A stretch of DNA of 44,443 nucleotides from a virus, in the UHGV virus genome UHGV-0035288. One strand, 5' to 3'. This document shows, one piece after another, positions 44-22,597 of this stretch. How positions within the stretch are numbered: position 1 is the first letter of the stretch; every line of letters starts with the position of its first letter. The position numbers were made by a program, and so were the translations under genes. The notes below the pieces were generated by a model. The model was not told the DNA's origin and did not search any database. It saw only the letters and a list, made by a program, of their open reading frames with translations.

Positions 44-529
44 ATGCAGAAGCGTGAGCAAAAAGATAGCTGGCGCACACCGCCAGCTTTATTTAAACCA
101 CTGCGTCGGAAGTACCGATTCCGTTACGATATGGCGGCAAGCGACACCAACCACCTGCTACCGCGTTACTTCACTGCGGAGCACAGCGCGCTTGATGCGG
201 ACTGGGCAGAGTTGAAAGGGTGGAAATGGTGCAACCCGCCATATTCCGATCCGCTGCCGTGGGTCGAGTGCGCAGCGCACGGACGCCGGACCGTCATGCT
301 ACTGAATCAGGACACGTCGACGAAGTGGGCGAAGCTGGCCCGGAGGACCGCCAATATGATAATTCTTCTTGACTGGCGGATTAGATTCATTCACGCCGTC
401 ACCGGCGAAGTCGGTCCGAGCAATAACAAGTGCCAGCAATTAATAATATTTGACGAAGCGCCGCCAGTAGGCAGCGCACAAATTGAAATAATGAGCGAGA
501 GTGAGCTACATGAATATCTTAGTCGTTGA
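44..529 (+). CDS. dam: DNA N6-adenine methyltransferase, phage Dam-type
   Basis: ATG at 44; in-frame stop at 32-34 prevents upstream extension. 161-aa ORF with NPPY catalytic tetrapeptide (WKWCNPPYSD) typical of N6-adenine MTases. No clear SD; may be coupled to a gene crossing the window junction. Confidence 0.6.
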   Translation: MQKREQKDSWRTPPALFKPLRRKYRFRYDMAASDTNHLLPRYFTAEHSALDADWAELKGWKWCNPPYSDPLPWVECAAHGRRTVMLLNQDTSTKWAKLARRTANMIILLDWRIRFIHAVTGEVGPSNNKCQQLIIFDEAPPVGSAQIEIMSESELHEYLSR

Positions 530-734
530 CCGCAGTATGCGCGTCGTGGACGAAATTGTTAAACGCTACCAAATTAACCCGAGGGAGAACAAAGTGCGGC
601 GGGTCAGTCGCCCGGAGCAATTGCTCGGCCTGGACCTTACCGGCTGGCTTGTAATGACTGCTAGCAGCCATCTTGTGTGTGGCACGTTTTCCGCCCGTAT
701 TGTTCGTGAAAATTTGATCAAGGAGTTGAAATGA
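510..734 (+). CDS. hypothetical small protein
   Basis: Track ORF starts at GTG 501; first ATG at 510 preceded by GAGAGTGAG. Overlaps dam 3' end; stop overlaps next start (ATGA at 731). Confidence 0.35.
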   Translation: MNILVVDRSMRVVDEIVKRYQINPRENKVRRVSRPEQLLGLDLTGWLVMTASSHLVCGTFSARIVRENLIKELK

Positions 735-1201
735 AATTACTGATTTGCGATTTGGATGGCGTTATTAACGGCTCAAGCGATGCGCGTGCCGACCTGGTGC
801 CTGGCATAAAAACTAAATCCACCTTTTGGGCGAAGTGGCACAAAGCGCATATACGCGAAGATCTGAACATGGATATGCTGCCGCTGCTGACCATGTACAA
901 AGAGCAAGGCTTCGAGATCGCGTATCTGACCAACCGGCAGCGAGAATGTTGGGACACCACCGCCGAGCAATTGGAGGTATTCCCGGTAGGCCGGTTGTTT
1001 ATGCGCCACATGCTGGACGACACCCCGCCACCTGAGTTTAAGGCGTGCGCCGTGTTCAAAATGGTGTGCTATGCCGACGTGTCGGAACTGGTCATCATTG
1101 AAGACTGTCCGAAGAACATCGCGGCAATTCGTCGGGCGTGCGGCGATCTGGTCCCGAAGATTTATGCGATAAACGTTGCAAAATTCACTTGCAACCAATA
1201 G
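731..1201 (+). CDS. HAD-superfamily hydrolase (phosphatase-like)
   Basis: AGGAG at 721-725 then ATG 731. N-terminal LICDLDGV matches HAD motif I (DxDG). Confidence 0.55.
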   Translation: MKLLICDLDGVINGSSDARADLVPGIKTKSTFWAKWHKAHIREDLNMDMLPLLTMYKEQGFEIAYLTNRQRECWDTTAEQLEVFPVGRLFMRHMLDDTPPPEFKACAVFKMVCYADVSELVIIEDCPKNIAAIRRACGDLVPKIYAINVAKFTCNQ

Positions 1202-1799: not shown

Positions 1800-2375
1800 A
1801 TGTACGGCGAATATGAAATATCTGGTAAACAATTCCACCTGGCGGCAATGATCGCAAGCATCGAGTTTGACCAGTGGCGATACAAGTCCGACGCTTGCAA
1901 GCAAAGCCGTCTGGTCGGTGTGCTGGGTGAGATGTTTGCGGGCATGTACCTCGAAGGGCAGGCGGGCGGGCGTAGCTGTATCCCGCAAGGTTTGCTAATG
2001 CGTACCGGCCTGTTTAGCGCTAACACTATCGACCGCGGCGATATTATCATGGTCGGCAAGCGCAAGGTAAAATCCGGTCCCGACTTCCGCGAACATGTGA
2101 TCGATGCCGTCTGGACCTACGAGGTTAAGGCCACCAGCGGCATCCGTCGCGGACTGGTAGAGGCGCGTTGCGCCCGCGAATATCTTGCTCGTCGAGTTGC
2201 CGGTGTTATCCTGGTAGGCGTAGATTTCGGACAACATAGCGCGCACGGCGTGATCGAGGATATCGCAGAACCTTACGTCATTGTTAATGACTGGCCCTTA
2301 GTGGAAGTGGACGGGAAGGAGTATTACGAAAGCCCGCTGGTGCGGCGCAAAATGGACTGGGAAAACTCAAACTAA
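1800..2375 (+). CDS. hypothetical protein
   Basis: GAGGA SD then ATG 1800; 191-aa ORF, last gene before convergent terminator. Confidence 0.5.
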   Translation: MYGEYEISGKQFHLAAMIASIEFDQWRYKSDACKQSRLVGVLGEMFAGMYLEGQAGGRSCIPQGLLMRTGLFSANTIDRGDIIMVGKRKVKSGPDFREHVIDAVWTYEVKATSGIRRGLVEARCAREYLARRVAGVILVGVDFGQHSAHGVIEDIAEPYVIVNDWPLVEVDGKEYYESPLVRRKMDWENSN

Positions 2376-2401: not shown

Positions 2402-4123
2402 TTATTTCTTCAACGCCGCGATCTCGGACTTCAACTCCCCCACCTGCTTATTGAGATATTGAATACACCCCATCAAGTCCATCACGATCGGGTTAACGTC
2501 TACGGACGGTCGGTCTACCGTTTTCTCCCCGATCTTGTTGCCGTCTTCGTCGAGGATATCCTCGACGGGTACTTCGATGTGCTTGATGTATTGCGGCGCG
2601 ATTAACTCCGCTTCTTCGGCGATAATACCGAAGCGACGGCGTCCCTTCTCGTCATCCTTGTACACGAAGTTAACAAGACGCTGGCGGCTAATGCGGTCCA
2701 TGGCCTCGCTTGCGTCTGCCTCGGCAATATCTTTCTTATACTCGCGACCCGACGTACCTTGCAGCGCGAGAATTCCGCCGCTGGTTGGGAATGTTACAAT
2801 GATTTGCCCCGTGTTGCTTCCATCCCCGCGTCGCCTAATAAGGTTGACCGTAGATATGACCCCATCTTCCCCCGATACTTCCATTATTGTCCTTGCGCCA
2901 ACCTGCGTATCCGGCGTGGCATACCTATTCGATTTAAAGGTTACGCCAGGGTATCCCTGGTTCTGGATAGTAATAACCCCGTCGGAGTCAATTGGACCCA
3001 AAGAACGCAGGTTTTTCGCCGAGAAAGTGCCCAGGTCATTAAAATCATAAACGGCGGTGCGGTCGGTTGTTCGGTTGTACACACTCAGGCGCGCGTAGTA
3101 TTCAGCCCCGATCGCCGCTCTGATACGCCAGGCCATGTTCGCTTCTTGAATCCCATTAACGTTGTAACGAGAATAGATCCCCCCGCCGTCAATGGTAGTG
3201 CCGACTGAGGGTTGGGTGGCGTCTTCTTTTATTACCGTCCAGCTATTAGTCGCAGTGCCCGCGTCTAGTAAGGACAGCGCCCAGCGCTTAGTCGCGGCAT
3301 CCAGATCCGCAATGGGGTCCGATCCGACTCGAAGCGGGCCGGGAGGCATAAGGTTCCCCCACGACGCCGTTTTATCAGCAAGCCCAGCAAGGTTGCCGGA
3401 TTTGGTTAGCAGGTTATCCACGTTAACGCTTTGCGCCCACTCCTCGGCCTGATCGCGGAATCCCTGAGCGGCAGTGCTGGCAGCTTGCGCGTCCATCTTC
3501 GCAGTGTTGGCCTCATCCCTCATAACGCTGGTGTCAGCCTTGATCTGGTTCGTCTGGTCTTTGATGGCCTGCGTATCAGTCTTAATCTGGTTGGTCTGCG
3601 TCTTGATGGTATTGGTGTCGTTTTTGAAGCCTTCGGCCTCATTGCGAAATCCTTGCGCTGCTGCTTCCGATGCGGCGGCTTGTTGTTGCAGGTTGCGCAT
3701 CTCAACCGGGTCTACGTTCTTAAGCAATTCCGACAGGTAGCCCCATGACATACCCTGCATGACTTGCCCGTTCGGTAGCGTTACCGTGATTTCTTCAGCG
3801 TCTCCGAAGATTGCACGCCAGTTGTTTTCATCTGCGATCATCAAGCGCAACGCTTTCTGTGCCTGTACGGTAACGCCCATAGTTGCCAGCGACATGGTAT
3901 CGCGCTTAACGCCATCCCACGCGAGGCCGGTTGCCGTTGGGCCGTCGAACGGAAGCACCAGCGTTAGCGCGGTTGCACTTTCAATGGACGCAATCGCTAC
4001 GGTGTAGGGTACTTGGCCCACCACCAGCGTTAAGAAGTCGCCAGCTTTAAACGCCGTAAACGTTGTTCCGACCCCGACAACCGCCTTGCTGTTATTCGTT
4101 ACGGATAGTGTACCCGCTGCCAT
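2402..4123 (-). CDS. tail fiber with C-terminal intramolecular chaperone (peptidase S74-like) domain
   Basis: Start moved to ATG at 4123 (GAGGA SD 7 nt upstream). N-terminus MAAGTLSVTNNSKAVVGVGTTF is a phage fiber anchor-type motif; central heptad-like repeats (QTNQIKTDTQAIKDQTNQIK); C-terminal block (...RLVNFVYKDDEKGRRRFGIIAEE...) resembles the self-cleaving chaperone of endosialidase-type fibers. Confidence 0.75.
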   Translation of the reverse strand: MAAGTLSVTNNSKAVVGVGTTFTAFKAGDFLTLVVGQVPYTVAIASIESATALTLVLPFDGPTATGLAWDGVKRDTMSLATMGVTVQAQKALRLMIADENNWRAIFGDAEEITVTLPNGQVMQGMSWGYLSELLKNVDPVEMRNLQQQAAASEAAAQGFRNEAEGFKNDTNTIKTQTNQIKTDTQAIKDQTNQIKADTSVMRDEANTAKMDAQAASTAAQGFRDQAEEWAQSVNVDNLLTKSGNLAGLADKTASWGNLMPPGPLRVGSDPIADLDAATKRWALSLLDAGTATNSWTVIKEDATQPSVGTTIDGGGIYSRYNVNGIQEANMAWRIRAAIGAEYYARLSVYNRTTDRTAVYDFNDLGTFSAKNLRSLGPIDSDGVITIQNQGYPGVTFKSNRYATPDTQVGARTIMEVSGEDGVISTVNLIRRRGDGSNTGQIIVTFPTSGGILALQGTSGREYKKDIAEADASEAMDRISRQRLVNFVYKDDEKGRRRFGIIAEEAELIAPQYIKHIEVPVEDILDEDGNKIGEKTVDRPSVDVNPIVMDLMGCIQYLNKQVGELKSEIAALKK

Positions 4124-4140
4124 AGCTGAATCCTCATAAA

Positions 4141-4169
4141 TTGGTTGCAATCCTGGTCGAGCGGTGCAA
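4141..4169 (+). promoter_or_regulatory. TTGGTTGCA motif plus degenerate second copy (CGGTGCAAT) upstream of lipoprotein moron
   Basis: TTGGTTGCA at 4141-4149, GGTGCAAT at 4162-4169, 35 nt upstream of ATG 4204. Confidence 0.4.
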
Positions 4170-4203
4170 TACTAAAACTCGACCAAATATAGGAGATGAT
4201 AAC

Positions 4204-4422
4204 ATGAAAACTTTAATTATGATTTGTGCGGTTCTTCTGTCCGGTTGTGCCGGTATGCCGTCTAAAATCTGCGACGCGACATATATGAATAGCGGTATGG
4301 AGTATTCTGTACCAGTGTTCGGTGTCGCCGACTTTAGCGGGCACAAAATGCTCAAGGCGGGGTATCCGTTCAACTTCCAGTATGTGTCGGTCGACCACTT
4401 CAAAAGCACCACCTGCAAATAA
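4204..4422 (+). CDS. small lipoprotein, candidate superinfection-exclusion protein (Cor/Llp-like)
   Basis: AGGAG SD then ATG 4204. MKTLIMICAVLLSGCAG is a signal peptide with lipobox LSGC; 72 aa. Opposite strand to flanking tail fiber genes, own terminator. Confidence 0.6.
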   Translation: MKTLIMICAVLLSGCAGMPSKICDATYMNSGMEYSVPVFGVADFSGHKMLKAGYPFNFQYVSVDHFKSTTCK

Positions 4423-4444
4423 GCCCCTTTCGGGGCTTTCTTCA
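4422..4444 (+). terminator. rho-independent terminator after lipoprotein gene
   Basis: AGCCCC-TTTC-GGGGCT hairpin (4422-4437) followed by TTCTTC. Confidence 0.55.
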
Positions 4445-5116
4445 ATCATAATTGGCCGTGTTAATCGCCATAATCGCGTTGCCGTTGTTAGTATACCCCA
4501 CCACATCCCCCGTGGCGTTCCCCGACGACGCTGCCGATATACGCGTTCGCGACCCATCAAATCTGGCCCCCGTGTACGCCGTTACTGATATTACCTGCGG
4601 CTGTCCCTGCACAAAAAACCGGATCAGCGTAGACCCCAATATGCCAGGAGCGACGGCGTAGCTGCCGTTTAGCGTCTGGTCAATGTTAATCCCTCCGTTA
4701 GCTCCTGGCGATCCGACGGTAACTAAATCACTTAGTACGCGACTCTCGTTAGTAAGCACTAGTTTCCCCGTCTTATCCCAAATAGCGAAGCCCCACCGCG
4801 GAAGGGTCTGTGGGAATATGGCAAAGATGTAAGCCGTCATCGTGAAGCCTTGCCCGAATGGATTGCTGGCGCTCACCTTCACCACATTACCAACGCGAGA
4901 AGATCCTACGACGGTCGGCTGGGCGGTGTGCGTAGTTTTCACAAACGCTATTGCAGGGTAGTCACCGCCCAAATTAATATCGGCAGCCGCCGACTGCGCA
5001 GTGCCGTTAGCCGAAGACCCAACAACCACACGGCGGAATAGACAAAACGGCGTCGATTCTGGCGTGATAAACGGGTTGCCGTTTGGTAAGTCAATCAACG
5101 CGCCGTAATTAGCCAT
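4442..5116 (-). CDS. putative distal tail / receptor-binding protein
   Basis: 224-aa Gly/Thr/Asn-rich ORF between the J-like gene and the lipoprotein/fiber genes; ATG at 5116 overlaps upstream stop (TAATG). Function inferred from position only. Confidence 0.45.
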   Translation of the reverse strand: MANYGALIDLPNGNPFITPESTPFCLFRRVVVGSSANGTAQSAAADINLGGDYPAIAFVKTTHTAQPTVVGSSRVGNVVKVSASNPFGQGFTMTAYIFAIFPQTLPRWGFAIWDKTGKLVLTNESRVLSDLVTVGSPGANGGINIDQTLNGSYAVAPGILGSTLIRFFVQGQPQVISVTAYTGARFDGSRTRISAASSGNATGDVVGYTNNGNAIMAINTANYD

Positions 5117-5418
5117 TATGCTCGCTCCACAAAAACAATAACGTCACATTCAGATGCGGAGTAAACCCCGCCACCTACCGCACTTGCCTCGGAAACCGTG
5201 ATAGTGTTCCCGCTGGCGGTTATTCTGCGGCCTGGCCCGACCGCGCCTTTATCCAGTGCGACCACGTATCCGACCTTCATCCCCGCCGGTACAGGGAATG
5301 ACCATGCGCCTGATTTTTGTCCTTCCGCAAGATGAATCCTTCCGATCACGCTTACCGGTTTAATGCCGTAGTTGTTTGGGCGTCCTTGCGCGTCCCACGT
5401 TGCGATACCGAATGCCAT
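5116..5418 (-). CDS. small tail-associated protein (hypothetical)
   Basis: ATG at 5418 with GAGG SD; 100 aa; immediately downstream of J-like gene. Confidence 0.4.
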   Translation of the reverse strand: MAFGIATWDAQGRPNNYGIKPVSVIGRIHLAEGQKSGAWSFPVPAGMKVGYVVALDKGAVGPGRRITASGNTITVSEASAVGGGVYSASECDVIVFVERA

Positions 5419-5453: not shown

Positions 5454-8400
5454 CTACCAGCTACCAGTAAGCTCACCAATCTGCACGCGGAGAACGCCGT
5501 TTCCGTCCTTCACGCTGATTCTCGTGTTCGTCTGTTTCATCCCGCCGCCGCTACCGGTCCCCAGGTTGATAAACGTTCCATCTTTCCCTAAGCGCCAGCC
5601 GCGCGTGCTGCCGTCGTAGTTATTCGATTGCAGCGTGTCTGTTATCTGCGCGAAGTTGATGGACGCGTTCTTGATGCGTGCCGTGTCGATATACACCGCG
5701 CCACCGTCCACAATAAACGCAGACGACAGCGTCCCATTGGACGGATGCATGATGTAGAACTGGTCCGCCTTGAACGCAATACGCGATTTAACCGCGTTGC
5801 CAGACGTCACAACGGAAAGCTGCATACCCGCATCATAATAAGTCCCGTTATATGTCACGCCAGCCTTAAGGCTATACGTGGCGCTACCACCAGAGTGGTT
5901 AAACGAGGACGTCATCTTCTGCTCGATAGCGGCGGACTGCTGACCGAACTGTGCAGCGACCTGGGTCTTATATTCCGCCAGCGCTCCCGCCACGTCTGCG
6001 GTTGCCGTTTGTACCTGCTGGATGGCGGCTTCCTGTTCCCCGAACTTAGCGGCAACAGTTTGCTGGTACTGGGCGAACGCTTGTTCCTGTGTGCTCTGCG
6101 CGGTCTGCAACGTGTGGATCGCAGCTTCCGCGTCATCAAGTCGCGTGCCGATCAACGTCTCCAGTTGAGCGACCGCCTTGTGGGCGTCCGCCGCCACGCT
6201 ATACGCGACCGAGATTTCCGCATAAATACCCTTGTACTCGGCGCGGGCGTTGAACAATTGCTGCGCGTCGGTGAGCATCGCCTCGTAAATACCCTGCGGG
6301 ATCGTGTTGATTGCTTCCTGGAAGCGTTTACCATCCTCGGAAGTCAAGAACTCGTCATCAAGCCCCTTCATGTACTCGTCAACTTTGTCACTCACCTGCC
6401 CTTCAAACGGGGCCGACCAGTCCGACAGGTTGCCGATTTTATCCGCTACACGGGCGCGCAACTGCTGGTAAATTCCGAACTCCAGCGATGTTTGCGCATA
6501 CTCCGCCCCCGGATATGGGACGTTGGTAAGGAATTTCCATTCCGTTTCGCCCGTCTTGCGTACTTCAAGCTCTGTGTAAGAGATATCCGTCGCGGCGTTG
6601 TTGTGGTTCCACTTCCATAGGATCTGGTGCAAACCTGAAATCGCGTTGGTGATGATTGGCGCATTAAGCCCTCCGAGGCGACCTTCGATCGGCGTGATGG
6701 GGGACGACACCCACGGGGACGAGATTTCGCCCATACCAATTGCGCGGACGCGTGCCTGATAGTTACCGGAGAACACGTTAGGGATGTGCGCCCCATTCGA
6801 TGCCGTGCGTGGGATGTTCACCCAGTCGTTTCCCCACTGGATTTCCATATTCTGCAAGCTGGTACGTCGCCACTGGATTTCATACACCACGGCATCCTTC
6901 ACCGGAGGGAATACAATATCCACGTTGGTGATTAGCTGGCCTTGCGATGAAATCTGCGACGGGGTTATGGTCACGGATTCCGGCCCCTTCATCACACCGT
7001 CCGGCACTTGCGTAAAGATGCCTGGGTCAAGGCGCGCGCCATTATCAACGGCATCATATTTGCTATCGTTGTATTCAATCCCGCGCACCGAAAAAGTGCT
7101 GGTAGAGTCGTCATATTCCAGGTCGGTGATGCGGAACTTCTGCAACTGGATATCGTTGCCATCAACGCAAAACGGCTGGTCTGGAATCGGGTCGGCATCC
7201 AGTGCAGTTTTTAGCGTAACCTTGTTGCCGTTGACGCTGGCGATCTCGCGAGTCTCCACATTACCGCTATCGGTGCGCACCAGGAACTTATCGCCAGGGC
7301 GGAACGTGATTTCGCTGTCCGTGTTCAGCACGGTACGCGTTCCGGGGTCCGACAACAGTCGACCGCCACGAGTCTCGAATCCGCCAGAAATATTAGTATC
7401 TGCGATCGCGACTACGCTACCAGGAATAAAGAATAACCCTTCCATGCCAACTTTAAAGCTAACTTGCTGGTCAAGCTGGTTGGAGATTAGCGCCCAGTGC
7501 CCGCGGCGTTGCGCTTCAGATTCACGCGTACAGCCGATCGCCGTGATATCAAGACGGTTAATCTTATGGCGGCGTACCAGTTCGACACGTTGCCCCGTTG
7601 CGATGGCATCTTCATAGTGGTTCTTCGGGTTGCCGTATGCGACCGCGAAAGTTGAATACCGAGTTTTCTGGCTGCCCGATGCGTAGTCGAATCGACCATC
7701 AATTACCGAGGCGTTGGTGATAGTGTGCGACACTGCTGCGACCGGTTGGTCACTGACGATATTCAACATCTGGTTGCCCCACCAGGTCATTCCGGCGAAG
7801 ATGGCAGCCAAATCCTTAAGCACGGTCCAGGCATCCGTCTGTGACTGAATGTACATATCATTCTTAAAGCGGATTTCTCGACCACCGTTGCCGTCGCTGA
7901 CCAACTGATCGCAGCGCTGCGCAATCTGGTAGAGCGCGTACCGGTTTAACATTTGCGGTTTGATACGCCGACCGAGGCCGAAGCGCTCAGTAATACAAAT
8001 ATCGTACCAGTGCCACGCAGGGTTATCCGTCCATGCGCGTTTAAACGTGCCGTCCCAGTCCCCGGAATAGGTATGGTTAATCGGGTCGTAGTTGTTCGGT
8101 ATTAGAACTTTGCGGCCTTTGCACTTGATGGACACGCGCGGGATGTTCTGGAACGCTTTGGCGTCGAACTCCACAAACAACAGCGCGGTTAGCGGGTAAC
8201 GCAGACGGGCGTCAATAATCTCAGTGATGGACTGCACCCGGATATCATTAACCACTTTCGCCGATGTGGAGTCCGCCGTTATGCGGTGCACCTCCACTCG
8301 CCAGCCGGTATTCACGTTCGGCGGTAATTCGATGCGGTGGTCGCGCTCATACAGCGACATTGTTTTACCAACGGCGGCGAATCTGAACTCACGCGGGTCG

Positions 8401-8873
8401 GCGTTATCCGTATACACAACTATCTTATAGTCGATGCGCCCGCCCACCAGGTCGCCATTATCTTCGTTAGTGTACAGGGCCGGAATGCCGATGCGAATGC
8501 GAACAGCGTCCAGACTGGTATCGTTAATCTGGCGTACCCACGGCGTGCCGTTTTCCAGTTTTACGCCGACAGATTGCTCACTTTCCACCGCCGAAAATCC
8601 GTGGATCACATCCTGGTGCTGTGTGCCGGGGCGGAACTCCACACGCGCGCCAGGGAAGTTTTCGGACAGGTCAGCGTTCTGGATCGGCGTTCCATCCAAG
8701 TAAACACGCTGCCGCAATTCGCTGGCGCTGGTAATACTTTCGAATTCCCCTTCCCCCAGCGCAAGCAAGATGCGGATTTTAGCCAGCGAATGCAGGCTAT
8801 CGGGCGTCTCCTGCGGGGTGTGCTGTTTGCCGCCGCCGCCTTTATGCCCTGTGACGTCGTAGATAATCGTCAT
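5454..8873 (-). CDS. tail tip / central fiber protein (lambda J-like host specificity protein)
   Basis: 1139-aa ORF, ATG at 8873 overlapping upstream stop (ATGA); N-terminus MTIIYDVTGHKGGGGKQHTPQE resembles J-type proteins; last gene of M-L-K-I-J order. Confidence 0.85.
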   Translation of the reverse strand: MTIIYDVTGHKGGGGKQHTPQETPDSLHSLAKIRILLALGEGEFESITSASELRQRVYLDGTPIQNADLSENFPGARVEFRPGTQHQDVIHGFSAVESEQSVGVKLENGTPWVRQINDTSLDAVRIRIGIPALYTNEDNGDLVGGRIDYKIVVYTDNADPREFRFAAVGKTMSLYERDHRIELPPNVNTGWRVEVHRITADSTSAKVVNDIRVQSITEIIDARLRYPLTALLFVEFDAKAFQNIPRVSIKCKGRKVLIPNNYDPINHTYSGDWDGTFKRAWTDNPAWHWYDICITERFGLGRRIKPQMLNRYALYQIAQRCDQLVSDGNGGREIRFKNDMYIQSQTDAWTVLKDLAAIFAGMTWWGNQMLNIVSDQPVAAVSHTITNASVIDGRFDYASGSQKTRYSTFAVAYGNPKNHYEDAIATGQRVELVRRHKINRLDITAIGCTRESEAQRRGHWALISNQLDQQVSFKVGMEGLFFIPGSVVAIADTNISGGFETRGGRLLSDPGTRTVLNTDSEITFRPGDKFLVRTDSGNVETREIASVNGNKVTLKTALDADPIPDQPFCVDGNDIQLQKFRITDLEYDDSTSTFSVRGIEYNDSKYDAVDNGARLDPGIFTQVPDGVMKGPESVTITPSQISSQGQLITNVDIVFPPVKDAVVYEIQWRRTSLQNMEIQWGNDWVNIPRTASNGAHIPNVFSGNYQARVRAIGMGEISSPWVSSPITPIEGRLGGLNAPIITNAISGLHQILWKWNHNNAATDISYTELEVRKTGETEWKFLTNVPYPGAEYAQTSLEFGIYQQLRARVADKIGNLSDWSAPFEGQVSDKVDEYMKGLDDEFLTSEDGKRFQEAINTIPQGIYEAMLTDAQQLFNARAEYKGIYAEISVAYSVAADAHKAVAQLETLIGTRLDDAEAAIHTLQTAQSTQEQAFAQYQQTVAAKFGEQEAAIQQVQTATADVAGALAEYKTQVAAQFGQQSAAIEQKMTSSFNHSGGSATYSLKAGVTYNGTYYDAGMQLSVVTSGNAVKSRIAFKADQFYIMHPSNGTLSSAFIVDGGAVYIDTARIKNASINFAQITDTLQSNNYDGSTRGWRLGKDGTFINLGTGSGGGMKQTNTRISVKDGNGVLRVQIGELTGSW

Positions 8874-21046: not shown

Positions 21047-21079
21047 GAAAAAGGGGCCATTACGGCCCCTTAATTATTT
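21047..21079. terminator. bidirectional terminator
   Basis: GGGGCC-ATTAC-GGCCCC hairpin (21053-21069) with A5 before and TTAATTATTT after; between convergent moron and spanin genes. Confidence 0.6.
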
Positions 21080-21290
21080 GCTGCAACTCCAGCACCTGCG
21101 CCCTTAGCTTCGCCCCGCATTCCATATTTTTCACGTCAATCATCAAATCCTCGTCGGGGTCTGCGGACGGGCTATCGAACTTGCACGGCGGTCGCAGTGC
21201 CGACTCCGTTAGCGGCATCAACGGCGCGTTGCTTGATCCGCACGCGCTCAGCATCAAAACTACAATCAGGGCGGTTAGGGCGCGTAACAT
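21060..21290 (-). CDS. Rz1: o-spanin (Rz1-like outer-membrane lipoprotein)
   Basis: ATG 21290 inside Rz-like gene in another frame; MLRALTALIVVLMLSACGSS signal with lipobox LSAC; Pro-rich mature part; 76 aa. Confidence 0.6.
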   Translation of the reverse strand: MLRALTALIVVLMLSACGSSNAPLMPLTESALRPPCKFDSPSADPDEDLMIDVKNMECGAKLRAQVLELQQIIKGP

Positions 21291-21501
21291 ATTTAACAAC
21301 CTCTTTCGTGATAGTCCGGTATTCCACGTCGCGGGCCTGTTCGGCCTGCACGGAGCGCTCCACAACTTTAGTTTGCTGCCGTTGGGCTTTGGCTTGCGCT
21401 TCTTGCGCCGCCTCCGCCACTACGCCAGCGCGATAGGAGTCACCTAGCCAGAATCCTACCGCCAGACCGATAACCAGTCCAATCGCTGCATATTTAATCA
21501 C
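21172..21501 (-). CDS. Rz: i-spanin (Rz-like)
   Basis: 109 aa; N-terminal transmembrane helix (MIKYAAIGLVIGLAVGFWL) then Ala/Gln/Glu-rich coiled coil; overlaps Rz1-like ORF. Confidence 0.6.
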   Translation of the reverse strand: MIKYAAIGLVIGLAVGFWLGDSYRAGVVAEAAQEAQAKAQRQQTKVVERSVQAEQARDVEYRTITKEVVKYVTRPNRPDCSFDAERVRIKQRAVDAANGVGTATAVQVR

Positions 21502-22597
21502 GCCATAACCCCCGGTTTTTAAGCTGAGCGATAGTCATTAGTTCGCCGGAATCGGTGAACATCTTCGGAACTTTCACTCCGCGAATAATCTGGTCGGCGC
21601 GTTGCACTCCGTATAATTCCTCCAGGATATGGCGCGGCTGGCGCTGCACCCATGAGAAGAAATCAGTCTGCGCGTCTACCTGCTCACTCAGCAATCTACC
21701 CGCGTCAGCCTTCAGTGCCGGACGCTTACCACTGGGCCAATCTTCCATGCCCTTGACTTTCCACGTCTCCGTCGACCGGCAGCAATAATGCAACTTGCCC
21801 GGACCAGCGCCATATTGTGACCCAGCCACCACTTTCCCGCCGCGCTTTCCTTTGGTGTCGGGAGTAACATCAACCGGATAAAACAGGCGATCGCGTAGCT
21901 GGCACATGGGAGAAGTATGCGTGTCCAATGTAGATAACCATTGGCGACCTTCGAGAATATCGTCATTTGCTTTTACCATTAGTTCGCGGGCGGTCGCCGC
22001 ATAGTGGTTGACTGCGGACTTAACAACGCTTGAGATGGCTTGCGCACTACGACCGCCTAGCGCGCGCCTCACGTCCGCGATAATTTCCATCGTTGGCTTG
22101 CCCTGGATGAATCCGGCGCGCACCTGATTACCTATCTGCGTCCTGGTCCACTCAGAAAGTGAGTCAGGCCATTGCATCATCGTATTACCCTGGAACGGGT
22201 TTTTCATTGCCGTCGCTGCGATCTGCGCACCGGTCACTACGCCAACCACCTCGACCGCCGGTACGGCGACCACCGGCTGGATCGCTGCCGTTAATGTGTC
22301 GGCGAGATAATCGGCCTCGGTGTCGGCGAACTCCTGAAGGCTTTCAGCCAACGCCTTAAACTCGGTGCGCAGTTCCGTTTTGACGGTTTTGTCGAGTTGC
22401 GTTAACAGAGTGGTAAGTGCCTTGTTGTTCATGGACTTTTTACCATCAAGTAACTCGGTCAGCTTACCCAGTAACGTGGGCCGGAACTTCTCCCACATAG
22501 CCAGCACCCTCCGCGCCTGGTCATTGCTCAGGCGCTGGGTGAAGATGTGACGGCGGATCATGCGATCCGCCATATATTGATTAATTGTCTTCGCCAT
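21494..22597 (-). CDS. head morphogenesis protein (minor head protein)
   Basis: 367 aa directly downstream of portal gene, overlapping it by 17 nt. Confidence 0.65.
   Translation of the reverse strand: MAKTINQYMADRMIRRHIFTQRLSNDQARRVLAMWEKFRPTLLGKLTELLDGKKSMNNKALTTLLTQLDKTVKTELRTEFKALAESLQEFADTEADYLADTLTAAIQPVVAVPAVEVVGVVTGAQIAATAMKNPFQGNTMMQWPDSLSEWTRTQIGNQVRAGFIQGKPTMEIIADVRRALGGRSAQAISSVVKSAVNHYAATARELMVKANDDILEGRQWLSTLDTHTSPMCQLRDRLFYPVDVTPDTKGKRGGKVVAGSQYGAGPGKLHYCCRSTETWKVKGMEDWPSGKRPALKADAGRLLSEQVDAQTDFFSWVQRQPRHILEELYGVQRADQIIRGVKVPKMFTDSGELMTIAQLKNRGLWRD

Follow-up and report, generated by a model that had tools for sequence, protein, structure and literature searches.

The Cor proteins of the temperate phages N15 (gene 24), phi80, HK022 and the HK75/mEp group are experimentally studied lysogenic-conversion proteins that inactivate FhuA. 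A separate named family is represented by Llp of phage T5 (PDB 8A60 chain B, 7QJF), whose gene lies beside a receptor-binding gene in this virulent siphophage and encodes a small lipoprotein of the outer membrane. The mechanism of Llp has been solved experimentally, whereas that of Cor is inferred. Llp is periplasmic, its termini are tied by a Cys11–Cys58 disulfide, and it recognises the FhuA plug in a non-native state; by reverse allostery, the FhuA loops EL7 and EL8 are made to fold inward, so that the receptor-binding protein (RBP) of T5 cannot bind (PMC9586334). Cor proteins were proposed to act likely in the manner of Llp, with their mechanism still to be resolved (PMC9586334; bioRxiv 10.64898/2026.03.26.714494). 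Another superinfection exclusion lipoprotein, Rtp45 (PDB 9RPS), is that of LptD-targeting small siphophages. This small periplasmic lipoprotein follows the same logic, and in T1-like and Dhillonvirus phages its gene occupies the same slot, next to the RBP locus that follows gpJ (PMC12685063; PMC8594841), but unlike Cor it targets LptDE and no TonB-dependent transporter.

In the BASEL study, the genes that mediate receptor binding proper, together with the exclusion gene that matches them, were placed downstream of gpJ (PMC8594841). The names GeorgBuechner, KarlBarth, and PaulFeyerabend, looked up there for their receptors, do not occur in its main text, and receptor assignments were taken from PMC13164509 and PMC10373560. 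Modelling of the Dhillonvirus JLBYU60 led to the proposal that FhuA is bound by a gp23-like, 'hand-like' protein (PMC12309495), and the gp23-like protein has been put forward as RBP in two studies (PMC8594841; PMC12309495). A 2026 survey described a three-gene 'cor cassette' and reported it for every FhuA-using Drexlerviridae and Dhillonvirus phage of the BASEL collection (PMC13164509). Published work already covers the cor gene, its family, the cassette, the association with FhuA and the structural resemblance to Llp, while in the literature no experiment on the Cor described here or on any other Dhillonvirus Cor was found.

The window analysed here, i.e., the whole stretch of 44,443 nt of the virus genome UHGV-0035288, is a Dhillonvirus genome that shares 92–95% identity with Envy, EC115, and JLBYU37 across 25 kb. 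We are highly confident that its positions 4204–4422 are cor, encoding the exclusion lipoprotein of FhuA-dependent siphophages. The gene and its surroundings comprise the following features:

2402–4123, minus strand: lateral tail fibre with a C-terminal intramolecular chaperone domain (PHROG 1980, E 7e-130; Pfam Peptidase_S74, E 7e-9)
4145–4173, plus strand: candidate sigma-70 promoter of cor (TTGCAA, 17-nt spacer, AATACT), read by eye
4191–4195, plus strand: Shine-Dalgarno sequence AGGAG of cor, 8 nt 5' of the ATG, from the sequence
4204–4422, plus strand: cor, prolipoprotein of 72 aa with signal peptide 1–14, predicted lipidated cysteine C15 and a mature part of 58 aa
4421–4438, no strand assigned: GC-rich hairpin AAGCCCC-UUUC-GGGGCUU (stem of 7 bp, loop of 4 nt) at the point where cor and the gp23-like gene converge
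4442–5116, minus strand: homologue of N15 gp23 and T1 ST31, 224 aa, legacy name 'membrane associated protein' (PHROG 425, E 5e-70)
5116–5418, minus strand: homologue of N15 gp22 and T1 ST32, 100 aa, legacy name 'outer membrane protein' (PHROG 557, E 1e-32)
5454–8873, minus strand: central tail fibre or tail tip protein J, 1139 aa (PHROG 31, E 0)

Comparison of the 72-aa product with protein families showed a match over residues 1–72 to PHROG 1119 ('Cor superinfection exclusion protein'; E 5.3e-28) and, over residues 2–71, to the NCBIfam equivalog NF047972 ('phage exclusion lipoprotein Cor'), a model named for the lambdoid Cor protein, with 62.8 bits at a cutoff of 31. A Pfam search yielded no model for Cor or its two cassette neighbours, for which PHROGs and NCBIfam gave matches. 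By tblastn against 50,697 phage records, 246 records matched. Cor was 100% identical to the annotated super-infection exclusion proteins of the Escherichia phages jat and welsh, and identities decreased to 83–96% in other Dhillonviruses, 52–56% in Hanrivervirus and other T1-like phages, 49% in T1, 45% in HK75/mEp, 42% in N15 (gene 24), and 29–31% in Stx2-phage 86 and SSU5. Global alignment gave 48% identity with T1 Cor and 41% with N15 Cor. A profile search of a large protein database with a 7-member alignment retrieved 247 clusters from phages and enterobacterial prophages, many of them named 'phage exclusion lipoprotein Cor' or 'cor protein'; a single-sequence query had returned only 6 near-identical proteins because the word index is of limited sensitivity.

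An alignment of 68 sequences showed C15, C23, G53, F66, and C71 to be invariant, with A52, P55, and F56 conserved in at least 90% of the members. The AGYPFNF/W motif was present in Cor, plus two further conserved cysteines near the ends of the mature domain. T1 Cor (ST30) is of the same family and has the lipobox and three invariant cysteines as well. The Cor proteins of the temperate phages N15 and HK75, also of this family (41–45% identity), differ from the window Cor by a 3-residue insertion after the lipobox. Rtp45 matched the Cor profile over the signal peptide region only, at an E-value of 1.5. As to the annotation of this gene elsewhere, cor is unannotated at 401–619 in the GenBank record of phage SM_S22 (L009), where two short minus-strand 'hypothetical proteins' have been called across it, and several other Dhillonvirus records name it just 'hypothetical protein'.

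The gene order J / gp22-like / gp23-like / cor matched that of T1, N15, HK75, damhaus, jat, and JLBYU37. The gp22-like protein was 54% identical to T1 ST32 and 72% to N15 gp22, and the gp23-like protein 53% identical to T1 ST31 and 64% to N15 gp23. As in the window, cor is convergent with the gp23-like gene in T1, the Hanrivervirus damhaus, jat, and JLBYU37. The temperate phages N15 and HK75 have the same order, followed by the side tail fibre, but there cor is co-directional with the tail genes and expressed from the prophage, whereas it is inverted in the window and T1; in SSU5, gp22, gp23, and cor are co-directional and lie downstream of the tail fibre genes. T1 (J / ST32 / ST31 / cor) likewise has a hairpin terminator separating cor from ST31. 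The opposite flank of T1 cor is occupied, however, by a recombination gene (exonuclease VIII), whereas the window has the lateral tail fibre at this place, as do N15 and HK75; no other difference of substance between T1 Cor and the window Cor was observed. The gp23-like protein is a candidate for the FhuA-binding RBP of the cassette. It had been taken for a putative distal tail protein in the earlier note, which is replaced here by its assignment to PHROG 425 as the N15 gp23 / T1 ST31 homologue. That note placed the lipoprotein gene beside receptor-binding genes; in the cassette, its neighbour is this gp23-like candidate and no Dit.

Mosaic boundaries were visible around cor, in the region 2402–5116. 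For the gp23-like gene, identity is 100% with JLBYU37 and 99.6% with jat, while Cor is 84.7% identical to JLBYU37 Cor and 100% to jat Cor, and the lateral tail fibre is 574 aa long vs. 805 aa in JLBYU37 and 476 aa in jat. The DNA match to JLBYU37 and related phages splits into several pieces around this region, which implies breakpoints of recombination close to the terminator hairpin and inside the fibre gene. Upstream of the fibre, the stretch 44–2375 on the plus strand holds accessory genes:

44–529, plus strand: homologue of Dam-type N6-adenine methyltransferases, annotated so in jat
731–1201, plus strand: polynucleotide-kinase-family protein (PHROG 415)
1266–1757 and 1800–2375, plus strand: two conserved proteins of unknown function

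The gp23-like, gp22-like, and J proteins were 100% (JLBYU37 gp20), 99%, and 99.4% identical, respectively, to those of JLBYU37, which was experimentally found to require both FhuA and loop 8 of this receptor (PMC10373560). Because the candidate RBP of this FhuA-dependent phage is identical, the receptor of the window phage is predicted to be FhuA, and BtuB, which the earlier note had listed alongside FhuA, need not be considered. We regard it as quite unlikely that Cor, while belonging to this family, targets an outer-membrane protein other than FhuA, or not FhuA alone (e.g., BtuB or others). Cor-like proteins do occur in BtuB-using Markadamsvirinae and in one BtuB-using group of Tempevirinae, but in the same survey the complete cassette with gp22-like and gp23-like genes was present only in FhuA-using phages (PMC13164509). 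Likewise, Cor is 15% diverged from JLBYU37 Cor while the candidate RBP is identical, so that its fine specificity could differ. This RBP is nevertheless 100% identical to that of a phage requiring FhuA, jat carries the same Cor beside an RBP that is 99.6% identical, and Cor passes the equivalog-level Cor model, all of which argue for FhuA as the target.

The AlphaFold2 model of Cor, built on the 68-sequence alignment, had a mean pLDDT of 85.3, rising to about 94 over the mature domain, and contained four beta strands. In a Foldseek search with this model, FhuA-bound T5 Llp (8a60_B) had the best rmsd and the best target-normalised TM-score among the leading hits, at a non-significant E-value of 0.11, and the predicted fold of Cor was closest to, and classed as the same as, that of T5 Llp in its FhuA-bound form. 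Matches in BFVD were to Cor first and then to lipoproteins of T5-like phages. At the sequence level, the Cor profile searched against PDB sequences gave no significant homology to Llp (8a60_B, E 0.06, 16.7 bits, over residues 1–43 only, which are mostly signal peptide). Cys23 and Cys71 of Cor, mature positions 9 and 57, are equivalent to Cys11 and Cys58 of Llp, so that both proteins have a corresponding cysteine pair near their two ends. The partner RBP of Llp in T5 is pb5, whereas the neighbours of Cor in the window are the gp23-like and gp22-like proteins (PHROG 425 and 557). Llp targets FhuA from the periplasmic side, and the same is proposed for the window Cor. The reading of this gene in the earlier note as a Cor/Llp-type lipoprotein is supported by PHROG 1119, NF047972, the identity with T1 and N15 Cor, the shared cassette and the Llp-like predicted fold.

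The ORF of cor, 219 nt in length, extends from an ATG at 4204 to a TAA at 4420–4422 on the plus strand, opposite to both neighbours (2402–4123 and 4442–5116, both on the minus strand), and its full translation is MKTLIMICAVLLSGCAGMPSKICDATYMNSGMEYSVPVFGVADFSGHKMLKAGYPFNFQYVSVDHFKSTTCK. The Shine-Dalgarno sequence reads AGGAG or AGGGG across all aligned relatives. A longer reading of 93 aa, initiated by a TTG at 4141, was discarded as superfluous, since every homologue begins with the same MK... at the ATG start. The N-terminus, MKTLIMICAVLLSGC followed by AG..., contains Lys2, a hydrophobic core, the lipobox LLSG preceding C15, and Ala at the +2 position. The lipobox MKTLIMICAVLLSG, followed by C15-A16, fits the lipobox expression, and the +2 residue is non-Asp. 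According to the +2 rule, Ala following the lipobox cysteine leads to Lol-dependent transfer to the outer membrane, and outer-membrane sorting is therefore predicted for Cor. In the whole window, 7 of the 1976 candidate starts (at least 30 aa) matched a permissive lipobox expression; the only family-supported genes among these seven were cor and the o-spanin gene at 21060–21290. The description of a 72-aa protein with a clear lipobox (LLSGC) on the opposite strand was therefore accurate, with the ATG-initiated ORF, Shine-Dalgarno sequence and lipobox all present.

Upstream of cor, the candidate promoter consists of TTGCAA (4145–4150) and AATACT (4168–4173) with a TG at −15/−14, as in the extended −10 type, and scores 8/12 against the consensus by eye. 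This score is under the 9/12 threshold of the promoter scan, which explains its absence from the scan output. The TTGCA core and the TG were retained in 18 unique Dhillonvirus sequences, all of them close relatives, and it is plausible, judging from these motifs, that 4145–4173 is the cor promoter. The scan gave instead two 9/12 sites within cor or overlapping its start. A promoter-like site on the minus strand, at 4216–4243, lies within the signal-peptide codons of cor (CGGACA-16-CATAAT, 9/12); in JLBYU60, its −35 reads CTGACA in the alignment. This site could drive the lateral tail fibre gene, which likely starts at the ATG at 4123–4121, divergent from cor. If it is not the fibre promoter, the fibre gene needs read-through of the hairpin and antisense transcription over cor.

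Downstream, the hairpin at 4421–4438 overlaps the final two bases of the cor stop codon. Its folding energy was −12.4 kcal/mol on the plus strand (z −3.3) and −14.0 kcal/mol on the minus strand (z about −3.2). It is kept in relatives, with the loop inverted in Opt212, and a terminator is annotated at the corresponding position of T1. The hairpin is likely a bidirectional intrinsic terminator common to cor and the gp23-like gene. A consensus terminator scan did not call it, and the U-run 3' of the stem was short by eye. An inverted repeat, GGTCGAG-N16-CTCGACC at 4157–4186, spans the putative −10 of cor and is perfect in the window. It was considered as an operator or RNA hairpin and rejected: its folding was modest (z −2.2) and its arms do not covary. 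In the 18 unique Dhillonvirus sequences, the combinations C/G, T/A, T/G, and C/A all occur and several sequences have arm mismatches, and because the polymorphic arm positions combine freely, the repeat was rejected as a conserved structure and is probably fortuitous. Of the gene's own promoter and terminator, as claimed from the sequence earlier, the terminator hairpin was confirmed, and the promoter match is weak, at 8/12 plus the TG.

The GC content of cor is 47.0%, compared to 54.8% for the window and 54–55% for the flanking tail genes, a value within the bottom 5% of 219-nt windows and consistent with a horizontally exchanged module. Dhillonvirus is generally treated as a virulent genus. 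The term 'moron' used in the earlier note applies loosely: cor is an independently oriented unit of low GC with a terminator hairpin and a candidate promoter (8/12), but it is part of a conserved receptor-specific cassette, in a genus treated as virulent, and moves with that cassette and not alone. Prophage expression, as for morons, would be irrelevant in a virulent phage.

The promoter of cor, at 8/12 and uncalled by the scan, and the convergence of cor with the tail operon, by which it is read against late tail transcription, could be taken as signs of a decaying or silent remnant. We consider this very improbable: the ORF is intact and has a strong Shine-Dalgarno sequence, the lipobox cysteine codon is kept in all aligned Dhillonvirus copies, the differences among 7 aligned cor genes (84–100% protein identity) are, by eye, in many cases at third codon positions, the inverted arrangement is kept in T1 and Hanrivervirus, and the key residues are invariant in 68 family members.

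o-Spanins are small outer-membrane lipoproteins of 50–80 aa with a lipobox. Cor has a lipobox too, but the probability that 4204–4422 encodes the o-spanin (Rz1-like) of the lysis system is negligible, and this identity was excluded: the phage has its own, true overlapping spanin pair elsewhere (21060–21501, minus strand), Cor had no spanin family match at E-values up to 0.01, and cor overlaps no i-spanin gene and sits among tail genes. The spanin pair is composed of:

21060–21290, minus strand: o-spanin lipoprotein, 76 aa, MLRALTALIVVLMLSAC... (PHROG 5672, E 4e-26)
21172–21501, minus strand: i-spanin, 109 aa (PHROG 2536, E 4.5e-37)

The o-spanin gene overlaps the 3' part of the i-spanin gene in another frame, and a 367-aa gene (21494–22597) immediately precedes the pair. 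No holin or endolysin was noticed beside it.

The analysis shows the gene, its lipobox, its family membership, the synteny and the fold similarity to Llp. For the exclusion lipoprotein Cor, we infer outer-membrane sorting, FhuA binding, an allosteric mechanism and a particular timing of expression, as follows. The 72-aa precursor would be exported by Sec, lipidated on Cys15 and cleaved by signal peptidase II, after which the protein would be anchored in the inner leaflet of the outer membrane. The 58-aa mature Cor, a small beta-sheet fold with its ends probably tied by a Cys23–Cys71 disulfide, would bind the periplasmic face and the plug of FhuA and, by analogy with T5 Llp, lock FhuA with its extracellular loops, notably loop 8, folded inward. 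The phage's own gp23-like tip RBP and the RBPs of other FhuA-dependent phages would then be unable to bind FhuA, and adsorption or injection by the window phage and other FhuA-dependent phages would be blocked from the periplasmic side. As a result, the infected cell would be spared superinfection, and progeny would not be wasted on infected cells and debris.

Because cor forms its own transcription unit and points against the late tail operon, it may be expressed independently of the tail genes and presumably before them. The inversion of cor in the virulent lineages (T1, Hanrivervirus, and Dhillonvirus), compared to its co-directional arrangement in temperate phages, would uncouple it from late tail transcription. 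The 15% divergence of Cor from that of JLBYU37 with an identical RBP, the inversion, and the position abutting a hypervariable lateral tail fibre also led us to two speculative ideas, namely that Cor alleles of virulent Dhillonviruses are under diversifying selection (e.g., against FhuA plug variants, or for the exclusion of another set of competing phages), or that convergent or antisense transcription across cor times the change from early exclusion to the late expression of the tail fibre. Both are offered as long shots that we hold to be unlikely.

Conceptually, the identification of cor adds nothing new to the literature of 2021–2026, and for the window it matters as annotation only. No Cor–FhuA complex has been solved. 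For such work, a short Cor from a virulent phage whose confident model resembles FhuA-bound Llp would be a sensible choice. The presence of cor marks the phage as a Dhillonvirus of the FhuA type, and cells infected by it are predicted to be refractory to T1, T5, phi80, and similar phages.
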